Made by a program: the position numbers and the translations under genes. From a bacterium (GTDB lineage: Bacteria; UBA8248): 64,000 nucleotides of DNA. Position 1 is the stretch's first letter; every line of letters begins with the position of its first letter. Of this stretch, positions 7,307 to 44,332 are shown one piece after another. The stretch spans positions 1,312,001 through 1,376,000 of the forward strand of contig OZ242260.1 of NCBI GenBank assembly GCA_965207065.1, written 5' to 3'. The notes beneath the pieces are model-generated. The model saw nothing but the letters and a program-made list of their open reading frames with translations, was not told the origin of the DNA and searched no databases.

Positions 7307-7401
<95 letters not shown>

Positions 7402-34582: not shown

Positions 34583-34674
34583 GGAGAGATGGCCGAGTGG
34601 CTGAAGGCGCTCGCCTGCTAAGCGAGTAGGCTGGGAAACCGGCCTCGAGGGTTCGAATCCCTCTCTCTCCGCCA
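34583..34674 (+). tRNA. tRNA-Ser(GCT)
   Basis: Acceptor GGAGAGA/TCTCTCC-G-CCA; anticodon arm CTCGC-CTGCTAA-GCGAG; long variable arm. Confidence 0.97.
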
Positions 34675-39112: not shown

Positions 39113-39250
39113 ACCCTGCGATGAAGTCGACCGGCCAGGCGCCCTCGTGGCACCCGGGAGTATCCACTTACCGCTGCTTCCTTCCGGACCTGACGGGGTT
39201 CGCGGGCTCCCGCCGCACGAGACCCAACCGGCCGAATTCATCGCAGGCTC
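39113..39250 (-). ncRNA. ffs: Signal recognition particle RNA (4.5S)
   Basis: Minus strand GTCAGGTCCGGAAGGAAGCAGC in a long hairpin; upstream of dnaX; ends approximate. Confidence 0.92.
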
Positions 39251-40410: not shown

Positions 40411-41172
40411 ATGAGCTATCCTCTGCCCCGTGAAGTCTCGCCCGGCGTATTCTGGCTCGGCGACTGCCTCGTGCAGCACTCACAAGGCAAAATCTATCAC
40501 TCCTACAACGCGGCCTTCCTCGTCATCGGCTCAGAAGCCTCCATGCTCGTGGAGACGGGACATCCCAAGGATTTTCCCATTATCGAAGGGCAGATGAGAG
40601 ATATACTTGCCAAAGGCGGCGGGCCGCTCAAACACCTTTTCCTCACCCATCAGGAAACGCCCCACTCGGGCGGTCTGGGCCGCGTGCTCGACAGATACCC
40701 CGACCTCACCATCCACGGGGACATGTGCGACTACCATCTGGCGTTTCCCGAGCACGAGGGACGCTTCCAGGAGATGCGCGTGGGAGACGCCATCGACTTA
40801 GGAAATACGCAATTCATGGCCGTGGAGCCCGTGATCAGGGACTTGAGGAGTTCTCTCTGGGGATTCGAAACCAAAGGGCGCGTGCTGTTTCCCGGAGACG
40901 GCTTCGCCTACAGCCACTACCATACCGATGGTCACTGCGGAATGTTCGCCGAGGAGGCCACTTCTCTCGATCTGGTTGATGTGCTGGGCGTTTTCGCCGA
41001 ACGCGCCCTGTTCTGGACCACCTTCACCGACATGAACATCTACGCCGACAAACTCGAAGAACTGATGGCCGAGTTAAACGTCGAAATCGTAGCGCCGACG
41101 CACGGCCTCCCCATACGGGACATCGCGCGCACGATGCCGAAAGTCCGAGAAGGCCTAATCCAGGGCAATTAA
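40411..41172 (+). CDS. Metallo-beta-lactamase-fold protein (FprA/ODP-like)
   Basis: SYNAAFL, VETG, THQETPH, FPGDGF, APTHG. Confidence 0.78.
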   Translation: MSYPLPREVSPGVFWLGDCLVQHSQGKIYHSYNAAFLVIGSEASMLVETGHPKDFPIIEGQMRDILAKGGGPLKHLFLTHQETPHSGGLGRVLDRYPDLTIHGDMCDYHLAFPEHEGRFQEMRVGDAIDLGNTQFMAVEPVIRDLRSSLWGFETKGRVLFPGDGFAYSHYHTDGHCGMFAEEATSLDLVDVLGVFAERALFWTTFTDMNIYADKLEELMAELNVEIVAPTHGLPIRDIARTMPKVREGLIQGN

Positions 41173-41209: not shown

Positions 41210-41608
41210 CTAGACGTCCTCCACCAGCTCCCACAGCGTGCCCATGGTGCTCTTGGGCTTGATGAAGGCGATGAGGTGCCCGCCGAAGCCGGGCCTGGAT
41301 TTCTCATCGATGAGTTCGAAGCCCTGCGCCTTCATGTCAGCCAGCACACCGTCGATGTTCTTCACGTCAAAGGCCACGTGGTGGAGGCCCTCGCCGCGCT
41401 CTTCGATGAACTTGGCGAGAGGGGTGTCCTGCCTGATGGGCGAGATGGGCTCGATGAGGTCGCCGCCCAGGTCCAGCATGGCCAGATCGGTCGCGCCGTC
41501 GGCAGAGGTCTCCCGCGCCAGCAGCTTCGCTCCCATGCCCTCGTATAGGGCGATGGCGGCGTCCATATCCTTCACCGCAACGCCGATGTGATGAAACTTG
41601 TTGAACAT
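41210..41608 (-). CDS. VOC-family protein, methylmalonyl-CoA epimerase-like
   Basis: HHIGVAV, RGEGLHHVAF, AFIKPKSTMGTLWELVE. Confidence 0.85.
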   Translation of the reverse strand: MFNKFHHIGVAVKDMDAAIALYEGMGAKLLARETSADGATDLAMLDLGGDLIEPISPIRQDTPLAKFIEERGEGLHHVAFDVKNIDGVLADMKAQGFELIDEKSRPGFGGHLIAFIKPKSTMGTLWELVEDV

Positions 41609-41820
41609 ATCCGCATTCCTCCCGGCCTCGCGCGGCGGCGGAACGCGCTCCCCTCGCCGCGCCGGCCATTCATAGATTTGGTGACCCCCTGTTTAGCAGG
41701 CTTGGCGCGATTCCTCAATCAAACCCGCCTGGGAAACTATATTTCAGAGAGCGTTTGTCGTATCCTTCGTACATCAACACTATTAAACGAGCCGCATATT
41801 CATCCATGAGGAGAACATCC

Positions 41821-42384
41821 ATGCAAGAAGGCCCCATCGACGGACACAGCACCTCCACCGTGCTGGGCGAGCGCGTCATCGACAAGCCCGAACACCCGGC
41901 CGGAGGACTCTTTACCGACAACACCGTCCACACGGAGATGCACGAGGGCTCCCTGCAGCTCAAACGCGGCGCCGCCGGAAAATTCGAGATATTCTGCGAC
42001 GAGGGCGCGGGAATCGGCGGCACGGCCCAATACCCCACGCCCATGGCCTATCTCGCGATGGCGACGGGGTTCTGACTGCTCACCCAGGTGTCGCGGTACG
42101 CGCACATGATGAAAATGGAAATCAAAGGAGCGAGCGTCTCTGTCCGGTTCCGAAAACTTTTGGGCGGCTCGGTGCTCAAGGGCACCGTGTTCAACAAGTG
42201 GGAGAGCGTGGACACGCACCTGAAAGTCGAATCGGACGAGCCCGCGGACAGGCTCGCCCACCTCATCAAGAACGCCAAGAACGGCTGTTTCGCCGAGGCC
42301 CTCATTTCAGAGCCCGTGCCGCTCAACTCCACCATCGAGGTGAACGGCGAGCCCTTCAAGATAGAGGGCGTGACGGCGGATTAA
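41821..42384 (+). CDS. OsmC/Ohr-like peroxidase, predicted selenoprotein (Sec85, TGA 42073-42075)
   Basis: AGGAG RBS; DEG..IGG....PTP..YL..GF-TGA-LLTQ reads in frame into the 42088-42384 ORF with second Cys (NGCF); hairpin after the TGA. Confidence 0.88.
42085..42108 (+). promoter_or_regulatory. Bacterial SECIS-like hairpin (OsmC-like gene)
   Basis: GTG-(bulged T)-CGCG-GTA-CGCG-CAC beginning 13 nt after the TGA. Confidence 0.75.
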
Positions 42385-42406
42385 CATCAATACATGGAGT
42401 TTATGG

Positions 42407-42859
42407 ATGGAATATTTCAACGCATCGGACGACATATCCTTCGGCTCGCAGCCCGAGCCCGCGGACCTCGAAGCCCTCGCCGCAAGAGGGGTCAAGACCA
42501 TCATCAACACGCGCTTTCCCGAGGAAGACCAGGGCGATTTGCCTCCCGAGCGCGCCAGGGCCGAGGCCGAGGCGCTGGGCATGCGCTACGTGAACATCCC
42601 CGTCTCGCCGGTCGAGTTCACTCCTGCCTCGCTGGCCGAGGTGAGCCGCGCGCTCGCTGAAGCCAAGGCCCGCGGCCCCGCCTTCGTCCACTGAAAGGCC
42701 ACGGGGCGGGCCGGGATTTGCTCGCTGAACCATCTGGCGGATGAGAACGACTGGACGGCGCGGGAGATGGAGGGGGCCGCCGACGCCACCGGCTTCGACT
42801 GGCGCGACGCGCCGCTCGCGCCCAAGTACCGCGAGTTCTTCTCCCGGAGGCCCGGCTAG
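42407..42859 (+). CDS. DUF442/Blh-type phosphatase-fold sulfurtransferase, predicted selenoprotein (Sec96, TGA 42692-42694)
   Basis: SQP..DL..LA..GVKTIIN.R..E, GMRYVNIPV, then FVH-TGA-KATGRA (C-x4-R loop); frame stays open 54 more codons to TAG. Confidence 0.82.
42705..42726 (+). promoter_or_regulatory. Bacterial SECIS-like hairpin (DUF442-like gene)
   Basis: GGCGGGC/GCTCGCT 7-bp stem with two G-U pairs, loop CGGGATTT, beginning 11 nt after the TGA. Confidence 0.62.
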
Positions 42860-42879
42860 GCGCACGCCGGATGCGCATC

Positions 42880-43330
42880 GCGCGCAAATGCGGGCTGTAG
42901 CGGGCAGATGCGCGGGAATCGAAAATCTTTTTTTGTCGCTATATTTGAGTGAGCCACACTCAGATTTAATAAGTAATCTTTTTGATTACAACCGGTTACG
43001 AGGCAGGCGCTTTTCATCAATTTATCGAAAAACCCCGTGAATTTATCTGTATTTACAGAAAATATGATTATTTGTATTGTTGGCTGATCTTCGCTCGCCT
43101 CCCTCCAAAGGCCGTGTTCCCGCGCGATGTCCAGACGAGCACCCACGGGCGCGGGCGAGGGATGGGCGTTTGCGCTTCCCGGAGCAGTTGAGGATCGTCC
43201 CGCCTCCTGCCGATCCGCCTGATTCATTTTCCCCCTCCCCGTATCGATGCAGAGACTGCCTTTCGCGCGGGAAATTCTCGCCCACGCGCGCGAAAACCCG
43301 GCCACGGCAAATGCGGGCAAATGCGCGCGC
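42880..43330. repeat. Dispersed non-coding element, copy B
   Basis: Inverted copy of 75-520; core 43021-43055 identical. Confidence 0.8.
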
Positions 43331-43393
43331 GTTTTTTGTCGGTAGGTTTCGGGCCCGCGCCCGATTGAAAAGGAAGGGAAGCGGTTTTCGTTC

Positions 43394-43419
43394 GTCATTC
43401 CAGCGAAAGCCGGAATCCA
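43394..43419. repeat. REP-like palindrome
   Basis: GTCATTCCAGCGAAAGCCGGAATCCA resembles the GTCATTCCCGCGAAAGCGGGAATCC repeat class. Confidence 0.55.
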
Positions 43420-43531
43420 TTTGCTTTGCCTTTGTTTTTATTTTCTGACTGGTTCCCGAAATGACGGCTGTGGTTAATTCCGAGTGATGAGGAGTTTTTC
43501 ATCGGGCTTTCCTCTCGGGAAGCCCGACGCC

Positions 43532-44332
43532 TCAGGAGGCGCTCGTCCCGGACCCCCCGGGGCCGCGCTTTAAGACGCCGGCGGCGTCGAAGCCGCCGTC
43601 CACCGGCAGCGTCACGCCGTTGATGTAGCCCGATTCCGGCAGCGCCAGGTAGAGGGCCGCGGCCGCCACCTCCTCGGGCGCCCCGTAGCGGTTCACCGGA
43701 ACGCGATCGAGATAGGAGCGGCGGGTCTCCTCGTCGTGCATTCGCTTCACCAGCGCGGTTTCGACGGGTCCCGGGGCCAGGGTGTTGACCGTCACGCCGA
43801 ACGGCGCCCACTCGGCCGCCATCACCCGCGTCAACGCAGCGACGCCGCCCTTGGAAGCGCCGTAGGCAGCGCGCCCCGTCCCGCCCCGCAGCCCCGCCAC
43901 CGAGGACATCGAGATTATCCGCCCGTACCCCGCCTCGACCATCACGGCGCCGGCGGCCTGCATCATCAGGAAGCTCCCCGTGAGGTTTACGGCGATGATA
44001 CGGTTCCATTCCGCGAGCGTGGTCTCCAGCGCGAGTATCTCCTTCCCGACCCCTGCGAAATGCATCAGGATCTCAAGCGAGCCGAACCGCTCCGTAACCG
44101 CCGCAATCAGCGCTTCCACGTCTCTCGCCTCGGCCACGTCGGTCCTGACGAACTGCGCCTGGGCGCCTCGATCTTTCAACGCCTCCGCCACCCCCGCGCC
44201 CGCCTCCTCGTTCAGGTCGGCGATGACGACGGCCGCGCCCGCATCCGCCAGCGTATGCGCCGTGGCGAGTCCGATGCCGCTCGCGCCGCCCGTGACGACC
44301 GCCGCATGTCCTTCGAGCTTGAAGGCGCACAT
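43532..44332 (-). CDS. Short-chain dehydrogenase/reductase
   Basis: TGGASGIG, YGASK, VNTLAPG, VDGG; TAATG overlap with the kbl stop. Confidence 0.92.
   Translation of the reverse strand: MCAFKLEGHAAVVTGGASGIGLATAHTLADAGAAVVIADLNEEAGAGVAEALKDRGAQAQFVRTDVAEARDVEALIAAVTERFGSLEILMHFAGVGKEILALETTLAEWNRIIAVNLTGSFLMMQAAGAVMVEAGYGRIISMSSVAGLRGGTGRAAYGASKGGVAALTRVMAAEWAPFGVTVNTLAPGPVETALVKRMHDEETRRSYLDRVPVNRYGAPEEVAAAALYLALPESGYINGVTLPVDGGFDAAGVLKRGPGGSGTSAS

Follow-up and report, generated by a model that had tools for sequence, protein, structure and literature searches.

We analysed a stretch of 64,000 nucleotides (nt) from a bacterium of the GTDB lineage UBA8248 (assembly GCA_965207065.1, contig OZ242260.1, positions 1,312,001 to 1,376,000 of the forward strand; hereafter the window, with positions counted from its first letter), and here we describe two adjacent genes in this window, gene 1 and gene 2, each of which has a single in-frame TGA that can be read directly from the sequence. 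We are highly confident that both are genuine bacterial selenoprotein genes, that gene 1 encodes a protein of the OsmC peroxidase type and gene 2 a protein of the DUF442 sulfurtransferase type, and that their pairing is a genus-level arrangement. Gene 1 belongs to an already known selenoprotein family. Gene 2 is probably a selenocysteine (Sec, U) variant of a known enzyme and, as such, a new selenoprotein family.

An earlier note on this stretch had described two co-oriented genes 22 nt apart, the frames of which run on past the TGA into family-like sequence and end at TAA or TAG. Reading 41821-42384 and 42407-42859 bears out this layout, with both genes on the + strand and an intergenic gap of 22 nt (42385-42406). 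The same note had named homology ending at the TGA as an argument against its proposal; instead, homology runs to the ends of both proteins. Finally, it had placed a hairpin 11-13 nt after each TGA, which is correct for gene 1 (12 nt) and slightly off for gene 2 (10 nt). The features of the pair are as follows (the functions of the ribosome-binding sites (RBS) and of the selenocysteine insertion sequence (SECIS) hairpins are predicted from the sequence).

41810..41813 (+), predicted RBS of gene 1, GGAG, 7 nt 5' of the ATG at 41821
41821..42384 (+), gene 1, predicted OsmC-related selenoprotein, 187 residues, U85, probable resolving Cys156, stop TAA at 42382-42384
42073..42075 (+), predicted Sec codon UGA of gene 1, U85, motif U-L-L-T, context G-F-U-L-L-T-Q
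42088..42105 (+), predicted SECIS hairpin of gene 1, GUG-U-CGCG / GUA / CGCGCAC, 7 pairs, one bulged U, loop GUA
42286..42288 (+), Cys156 codon of gene 1, probable resolving Cys, invariant in 22 of 22 rows of alignment A6 and Cys in 3cje
42396..42399 (+), predicted RBS of gene 2, GGAG, 7 nt 5' of the ATG at 42407
42407..42859 (+), gene 2, predicted DUF442 / BLH-phosphatase-like (sulfurtransferase-type) selenoprotein, 150 residues, U96 in H-U-x4-R, stop TAG at 42857-42859
42692..42694 (+), predicted Sec codon UGA of gene 2, U96, context F-V-H-U-K-A-T-G-R-A-G
42705..42726 (+), predicted SECIS hairpin of gene 2, GGCGGGC / CGGGAUUU / GCUCGCU, 7 pairs, loop CGGGAUUU
42719..42721 (+), Cys105 codon of gene 2 (U+9), specific to the Sec clade and also in the 3' arm of the hairpin

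The genome encodes a Sec-decoding machinery and the in-frame TGAs are conserved

The genome consists of one contig of 4.48 Mb and is 96% complete on marker genes. All four components for which the earlier note had proposed to search the genome are present, i.e. tRNA-Sec (75.9 bits, gathering score 47) as well as selA (579 bits), selB (386 bits) and selD (334 bits), the latter three all above their curated cut-offs. The selB gene adjoins selA. The selD gene (L019) has one in-frame TGA and, therefore, is of the Sec-containing SelD type. In the window, TGA also serves as an ordinary stop codon and ends 15 of the 30 ATG-started open reading frames (ORFs) of at least 300 amino acids (aa).

For the comparative search, we used 61 genomes, the window's own included. 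Both genes were matched in all 22 other genomes of the same genus, and every full-length match has exactly one TGA. For gene 1, all 22 genomes have a match with one TGA, and 21 of these are clear orthologues. In the genome G018, which is 79% complete, the window's own copies are not fully assembled, the best OsmC match being a paralogue and the DUF442 orthologue a 44-residue piece at a contig end. Full-length matches with a single TGA cover, for both genes, relatives of 36-99% identity. A full-length DUF442-type match was present in 34 of the 41 other genomes of the family f1; a 35th genome of this family (G025) has a partial match only, with TGC and no stop. No DUF442-type match was found in the nine genomes of the other three families among the 51 genomes of the phylum that were searched. 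The full-length DUF442-type matches listed in the phylum have one TGA each, except one with two, and among the genomes searched the DUF442-Sec gene occurs in one or two copies per genome and within one family.

At the U85 column, TGA was present in 41 of the 41 relatives and paralogues of gene 1 examined, and they retain it to 39-42% identity, with homology spanning residues 1-187. Similarly, TGA was present at the U96 column in 39 of 40 loci related to gene 2, while the remaining locus, which is 33% identical, has TGC; these relatives retain TGA to about 36% identity, with matches that span residues 1-148 of 150. Altogether, these observations strongly support, at the level of sequence, that both genes encode Sec.

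Gene 1 belongs to the OsmC-like selenoprotein family

Gene 1 scored 164.3 bits against the NCBIfam model NF041052 'OsmC-related (seleno)protein', the cut-off of which is 95, and is a member of this family; against Pfam OsmC it scored 47.9 bits. All NF041052 traits tested were found in gene 1, i.e. the score, the UxxT Sec motif in the form U-L-L-T, and a further conserved Cys, C156. The profile built from the 22 rows of relatives in A6 matched the solved OsmC-like protein 3cje at 57.1 bits, and 3cje carries Cys at both the U85 and the C156 columns. In 12 sequences, the Cys156 codon is TGT six times and TGC six times; because both synonymous codons are used, Cys156 is conserved at the protein level.

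OsmC-like selenoproteins have been catalogued since 2005 (PMC1088965) and are listed with PF02566 and the motif UxxT in Table 1 of PMC13188914, so that this half of the pair, which the earlier note had called hidden, is known to the field. Compared with this family (NF041052/PF02566), gene 1 has the same UxxT motif, the same second Cys and a SECIS directly downstream, and we see no essential difference. By analogy with the family, gene 1 would be an OsmC/Ohr-type thiol peroxidase with hydroperoxide reductase activity.

The genome has three OsmC-Sec genes, gene 1 included. The two paralogues (L095:3998-4552 and L096:4004-4522), which lie outside the window, are 47-52% identical to gene 1, have one TGA each and share the GCGGUACGC hairpin core with gene 1. 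Next to the L096 paralogue, on its 3' side, lies an AIR-synthase-type gene with a weak match to the selD model (97 bits, below the cut-off); we weighed this gene as a possible link to selenium and rejected the idea for want of support. In some relatives, OsmC-Sec genes have expanded strongly, as many as 12 matches being present in a single genome, and the relative G035 has a tandem OsmC-Sec pair (L093:298-852 and L093:877-1428) with a spacing of about 25 nt. Most of the OsmC-Sec matches listed have exactly one TGA, and a few also have other stops.

Gene 2 is a PF04273 member with the TGA at the active-site Cys column

Gene 2 scored 45.5 bits against Pfam PF04273 (BLH_phosphatase, formerly DUF442; cut-off 26.1) and is a member of this family. 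The model for the bifunctional Blh protein, in which a DUF442 domain is joined to a dioxygenase of the ETHE1 type (NF040641; cut-off 625), gave 55.3 bits, with coverage of profile positions 3-130 of 423 only, and an NCBIfam search found no dioxygenase domain in the gene 2 protein. A profile of 63 rows (A5) matched DUF442 proteins of solved structure, 2f46 at 78.6 bits and 3gxg/3gxh at 65.8 bits, and then Cys-based phosphatases, including TpbA, DUSPs and PTPMT1; several Pfam families of the protein tyrosine phosphatase (PTP) type score weakly. The active-site Cys of 2f46, 3gxg and TpbA sits at the U96 column, and among the 63 rows of A5, H95 is conserved in 61, C96 in 62 and R101 in 61. Moreover, we inspected the U96 column in the best 150 of 1698 matches (E <= 0.001) from an exhaustive representative search. 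In the 148 proteins other than the query, the column holds Cys in 135 and Ser in four and is uncovered in nine; at least three of these nine are stubs of 94-95 residues, the match of which ends just before the column. The identity of gene 2 to Cys forms is about 30-40%, with the exception of P0037, a full-length Cys homologue of 162 aa that is 50% identical and in which the site reads FVHCKAIGRAG (FVHCKAIGRAGVCS). The DNA encoding P0037 was not found in a metagenome scan.

The claim of the earlier note that TGA stands at the catalytic Cys position thus holds for both proteins, in which Sec is placed in the catalytic column: U85 aligns with Cys of 3cje, and U96 with Cys of 2f46, 3gxg and the 135 proteins. 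Similarly, the alternation of Cys and TGA for which it had proposed to look is found at this same column, with Cys in P0037 and TGC at one locus among 40. The note had also predicted that gene callers break such frames at the TGA, which is what has happened to gene 2, i.e. 54 of its 65 relatives in public databases are exactly 95 residues long, and the two of these 54 that were sequence-checked both end in ...FVH, just before the TGA. The public record of a gene 2 relative is named only 'sulfur transferase domain-containing protein'.

A second Cys, Cys105, lies at U+9. It is Cys in eight of the eight rows formed by the Sec clade plus P0037 and in none of the other 55 rows of A5, in almost all of which this position is hydrophobic; its codon is TGC in 16 of 16 sequences. 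Because this codon lies in the SECIS stem, the conservation of Cys105 may be an RNA constraint rather than catalytic, and Cys105 may be a resolving Cys, an RNA constraint or both.

The DUF442 domain of Xylella Blh has sulfurtransferase activity (PMC5823870), and the C94S substitution inactivates a DUF442 domain that is fused to SQR (PMC9163753). By analogy with these tested domains, gene 2 would be of the sulfurtransferase type and transfer sulfane sulfur.

The genome has a second DUF442-Sec gene outside the window (L077:3998-4441 (-)), which is 44% identical to gene 2 and has the same hairpin sequence. A DUF442-Sec paralogue in the relative G010 (L083) has two TGA codons in the match, the second of which could be a second Sec codon, the mark of a decaying copy, or a natural stop inside the matched range.

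Comparative data support a hairpin downstream of each TGA

The bacterial SECIS (bSECIS) model of PMC13188914 has a loop of 3-9 nt, a stem of 4-16 bp, a G as the first or second nucleotide of the loop, a distance of 16-37 nt from the UGA to the loop, and a minimum free energy of -7.5 or lower. By our own measurement, both hairpins fall within the structural ranges of this model, with distances from UGA to loop of 20 nt (gene 1) and 17 nt (gene 2); in energy, gene 2 lies within the range and gene 1 is borderline. Folded in isolation, the gene 1 hairpin has -6.7 kcal/mol (z -1.36 against shuffles) and the gene 2 hairpin -9.7 kcal/mol (z -2.20). It is because of the comparative data that the hairpins rise above chance.

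For gene 1, the helix formed by columns 18-23 and 27-32 was followed in 31 distinct sequences. Three of its six pairs have changed on both sides (20 cells), with compensatory changes such as C-G to A-U and G-C to A-U, and the other three pairs never vary. The covariation was 0.228 compared to 0.065 in shuffles, was reached by none of 500 shuffles, and collapsed when the partner columns were slid. In same-genus sequences, the hairpin register includes a bulged U. Moreover, in a test of synonymous sites, columns were codon-invariant in 2 of 4 cases in the hairpin region compared to 1 of 45 outside (p 0.015).

For gene 2, the helix of seven pairs is paired in 217 of 217 cells across 31 distinct sequences; three pairs vary on one side only (G-U/A-U, G-C/G-U), and the pair is always kept. 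Synonymous sites give the stronger signal for gene 2. Among 16 sequences with pairwise identities below 80%, the codons at U+4, +6, +7, +9 and +10 (G, A, G, C, S) are invariant as GGG, GCC, GGG, TGC and TCG, and Arg at U+5 is encoded only by CGG or CGA, either of which pairs with U; elsewhere in gene 2, two to four codons are used freely for the same amino acids. In this set, the codon does not vary in 5 of the 7 conserved columns of the hairpin region, compared to 1 of 31 elsewhere (Fisher p 2.4e-4, which is indicative only because the sequences are related). The 3' arm of the gene 2 SECIS consists of the clade-specific Cys-Ser-Leu codons. Because these pair with the stretch encoding the G-R-A-G loop that is found throughout the family, the RNA structure and the active-site sequence would be locked together.

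RNA-library contigs cover both TGAs and the junction

The RNA evidence consists of contigs from four RNA-library runs. A contig of 2115 nt covers 41842-42853 without gaps and with 94 differences, so that it comes from a relative. A contig of 165 nt bridges the junction between the genes (42308-42472) without differences, and shorter contigs span each TGA. These contigs are a weak hint of expression and of co-transcription; stretches lacking RNA-contig cover in runs X15-X17 have no evidential value. Six DNA runs labelled 'sponge metagenome' contain 76% of the sampled words of 41600-43000, and the matching RNA-library contigs likewise come from runs labelled sponge metagenome; these labels suggest that the lineage is sponge-associated.

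The pairing of the two genes is confined to one genus

In the 22 other same-genus genomes, the gap between the two matches is at most 30 nt in 16 and 76-83 nt in two; in three single genomes it measures 211 nt, 700 nt and 6.8 kb, respectively, and one assembly is too fragmentary for the gap to be read. In eight genomes of other genera of the same family that have a full-length DUF442-Sec gene, there was no OsmC-Sec gene on the same contig among the matches listed. We also examined 19 DUF442-Sec loci outside the pair, the own-genome copy L077 included. An ilvD gene is the neighbour in 15 of these and encodes, in 15 of 15, a protein of 563-615 residues that is a dihydroxy-acid dehydratase by Pfam; the upstream neighbour is a Transglut_core2 gene in 12 of the 17 loci scanned. 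L077 itself is flanked by ilvD and a Transglut_core2 gene.

The earlier note had read the pair as a two-gene peroxide/persulfide module and had proposed to test its conservation. Among the matches listed, the pair is not kept beyond the genus (g1), to which the adjacency is confined, and at 15 of the 19 other loci the DUF442-Sec gene has ilvD beside it. Thus, the pairing is a genus-level arrangement and not a conserved system, and because of the ilvD/Transglut_core2 context elsewhere, the 'module' is at best a local arrangement. Section 9 of PMC13188914 includes the selenoprotein operons grdA-grdB, prdB-prdC, Prx with a SELENOW-like gene and Prx-like with an AhpD-like gene. Gene 1 and gene 2 resemble these in being two adjacent and co-oriented selenoprotein genes of redox or chalcogen-transfer types; however, the OsmC/DUF442 pairing is not in that section and is conserved in one genus only.

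Immediately upstream of the pair, the window has a glyoxalase/VOC gene that is divergent (41210-41608 (-)), with an MBL-fold gene further upstream (40411-41172 (+)), and the downstream neighbours are a convergent SDR gene and a class I/II aminotransferase gene. Because the upstream neighbour is divergent and the downstream neighbours are convergent, the pair is probably a stand-alone two-gene unit, and together with the 22-nt gap this arrangement suggests that gene 1 and gene 2 are probably co-transcribed here.

Proposed mechanism and alternative readings

In the mechanism that we propose, SelB with Sec-tRNA(Sec) would read each UGA as Sec, guided by a stem-loop that lies within the coding sequence 10-12 nt downstream. 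In gene 1, Sec85 of the UxxT motif would be the peroxidatic residue in place of Cys, with Cys156 as the probable resolving partner. In gene 2, Sec96 would replace the active-site Cys of the H-C-x4-R loop in a stand-alone, rhodanese-like protein with a phosphatase fold, and would carry sulfane sulfur or selenium as an Se-S(Se) adduct, which Cys105, nine residues after Sec96, could resolve. Both enzyme activities are assigned by analogy, and the role of Cys105 is an inference.

Several observations weigh against this interpretation. In single-sequence folds compared to dinucleotide shuffles, the hairpins are no better than the shuffles (z +0.54 for gene 1 and -0.20 for gene 2), i.e. on a single sequence alone they are not beyond chance, and the gene 1 hairpin, with -8.1 kcal/mol in context, misses the energy of -7.5 when folded alone (-6.7 kcal/mol). 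No pair of the gene 2 helix has changed on both sides among the 31 distinct sequences, and the invariance of this helix could partly reflect conserved amino acids. The relatives are phylogenetically close, so that counts across them are not independent. The RNA-library contigs cannot show a single transcript, and they may stem from DNA carry-over. Gene 2 scored 46.9 bits against the sulfur transferase subfamily TIGR01244, below the curated cut-off of 85.85, and because of this score we file it as a PF04273 member only; its sulfurtransferase function rests on relatives that are about 30-40% identical. Finally, we infer the insertion of Se at the two UGAs from recoding signals and comparison.

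The TGAs could be ordinary stops, in which case the window would contain two pseudogenes, pairs of short genes or sequencing errors, and the downstream frames would be open by chance or decaying. The public gene calls, which give gene 2 as a 95-residue protein, and the lack of significance of the single-sequence hairpins fit this explanation; however, 39 of 40 and 41 of 41 loci have TGA at the corresponding column, down to identities of 36-42%, and the proteins are conserved over their whole length after the TGA, synonymous variation is normal outside the hairpins, and independent assemblies and the RNA-library contigs agree. In total, we regard ordinary stops as highly improbable. A genome-wide reassignment of TGA to Trp or Gly, as in codes of type 4 or 25, would explain the open frames and nothing else; the 15 long ORFs of the window that end in TGA, the aligned homologue residue, which is Cys and not Trp or Gly, the completeness of 96% on marker genes, a figure that presumably used the standard code, and the complete Sec machinery argue against it, and we consider its probability negligible.

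Two further explanations accept that gene 2 is a selenoprotein gene. In one, its product would be a reductase or phosphatase (arsenate-reductase-like or low-molecular-weight PTP-like) that runs through a Sec96-Cys105 selenenylsulfide cycle. The fold is that of the Cys-based phosphatase superfamily, as seen from the profile matches to TpbA, DUSPs and PTPMT1 and the weak PTP-type Pfam scores; the restriction of Cys105 to the Sec clade plus P0037 (8/8 versus 0/55) suggests a redox couple foreign to the classic DUF442 sulfurtransferases; and arsenate reductase is among the enzymes with a catalogued Sec form (PMC13188914, Table 1). However, the loop is C-x4-R as in DUF442 and not C-x5-R as in PTPs, the top solved and Pfam matches are DUF442, the tested DUF442 domains are sulfurtransferases (PMC5823870, PMC9163753), and the Cys105 codon lies in the SECIS stem, so that its conservation is maybe RNA-driven. 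We judge this reading unlikely and prefer the sulfurtransferase type for gene 2. In the other, the two selenoproteins would form a dedicated, coupled peroxide/persulfide relay in which, e.g., DUF442-Sec hands sulfane sulfur to OsmC-Sec or recycles it. The co-orientation of the genes, their spacing of 22 nt between divergent and convergent neighbours, their adjacency within 83 nt in 18 of the 22 other same-genus genomes, and the bridging of the junction by the 165-nt and 2115-nt RNA-library contigs are in line with such a coupling. It is opposed by the eight genomes of other genera that, among the matches listed, lack OsmC-Sec on the DUF442-Sec contig, by the other DUF442-Sec loci, which adjoin ilvD in 15 of 19 and Transglut_core2 upstream in 12 of 17, by the many OsmC-Sec genes (up to 12 matches per genome), which are mostly unlinked to DUF442, and by the three same-genus genomes in which the two genes lie 211 nt, 700 nt and 6.8 kb apart. 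A dedicated relay is, therefore, doubtful compared with a genus-level pairing of two selenoprotein genes.

Relation of gene 2 to known selenoproteins

We lean towards the view that gene 2 founds an uncatalogued selenoprotein family, the first with a Cys-phosphatase (DUF442, C-x4-R) fold. Among the genomes searched, this selenoprotein would be restricted to one family within a small phylum of uncultured bacteria that is rich in selenoproteins, with a U-x8-C signature of its own and a SECIS locked to the active site. Table 1 of the 2026 review PMC13188914, with 119 families and subfamilies, has no PF04273, DUF442 or phosphatase-fold entry, and the text of that review mentions neither PF04273, DUF442 nor a phosphatase; the 2022 review PMC9312934 has no mention of a phosphatase or sulfur transferase, and none of DUF442 in the DUF passages displayed. 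A literature search on PF04273, DUF442 and TIGR01244 by titles and abstracts, a scope outside which lie supplements, including Table S2 of BSepDB, and most subscription journals, found no selenoprotein paper among those listed, and no model in NCBIfam release 20.0 is specific to gene 2. The OsmC half of the pair and the Sec-insertion mechanism are ordinary.

Compared with DUF442/PF04273 domains, i.e. the N-terminal domain of Xylella/Agrobacterium Blh, the Cupriavidus SQR fusion, 2f46 and 3gxg, gene 2 shares the H-C-x4-R-(A/S)-G loop as well as the column of the catalytic residue and is of comparable size, with about 150 residues. By contrast, it has Sec for Cys and an extra Cys at U+9, and it is stand-alone, without a persulfide dioxygenase or SQR domain or neighbour. 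Rhodanese-type selenoproteins are represented in Table 1 of PMC13188914 by five 'rhodanese-like domain-containing protein' forms. In these as in gene 2, Sec takes the position of the Cys that carries the persulfide in an active-site loop for sulfur transfer, and because of this the chemistry is presumed to be the same; however, gene 2 has the phosphatase-like fold of PF04273 and they have the rhodanese fold of PF00581, a family to which we do not assign gene 2.

If this assignment is correct, gene 2 adds a fold class to a selenoprotein catalogue that, with 119 families, has five rhodanese-fold Sec forms and no phosphatase-fold one. By comparing the Sec form with the Cys forms, P0037 and the wider family, one could ask in a well-defined setting which advantage selenium brings to the transfer of sulfane sulfur, and gene 2 illustrates how a SECIS can constrain residues near an active site. 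In public records, the gene 2 protein is carried as a 95-residue stub. BSepDB searches with known families only (111), and GTDB phylum UBA8248 genomes, labelled Nitrospinota, are among its richest selenoproteomes, with 48-54 genes (PMC13326102). Resources of this type are seeded by known families and, therefore, would undercount selenoproteomes in this lineage. The close relatives of the window are metagenome-assembled genomes labelled Nitrospinota or Nitrospinaceae; because of these labels, the lineage is probably the one already reported as Sec-rich.

Surroundings of the gene pair

The composition profile around the pair is unremarkable except for a dip in GC content to 0.50 after gene 2. 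This region of about 0.5 kb (42860-43400; about 0.61 for the window) has no Pfam-matching ORF and no terminator-like site; a 180-aa ORF 3' of gene 2 (42856-43398 (-)) has no family match. A scan of 41400-43600 for promoters and terminators found no terminator and a single weak promoter-like site, which lies downstream of the pair; this result is not above the level in shuffles.

The MBL-fold gene at 40411-41172 (+) matches Lactamase_B weakly (30.1 bits), with ODP below the cut-off, and by eye its metal motif is H-x-E-x-x-H. The metal motif of persulfide dioxygenases is H-x-H-x-D-H; because of this difference, the MBL-fold gene probably does not supply a counterpart of the dioxygenase with which DUF442 is combined in Blh.

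At gathering thresholds, Rfam has no match over the gene pair. Its three matches in the window are the signal recognition particle RNA at 39130-39229 (-) and two tRNA-Ser genes at 7307-7399 (+) and 34583-34674 (+), with the anticodons GGA and GCT, all of which are ordinary.

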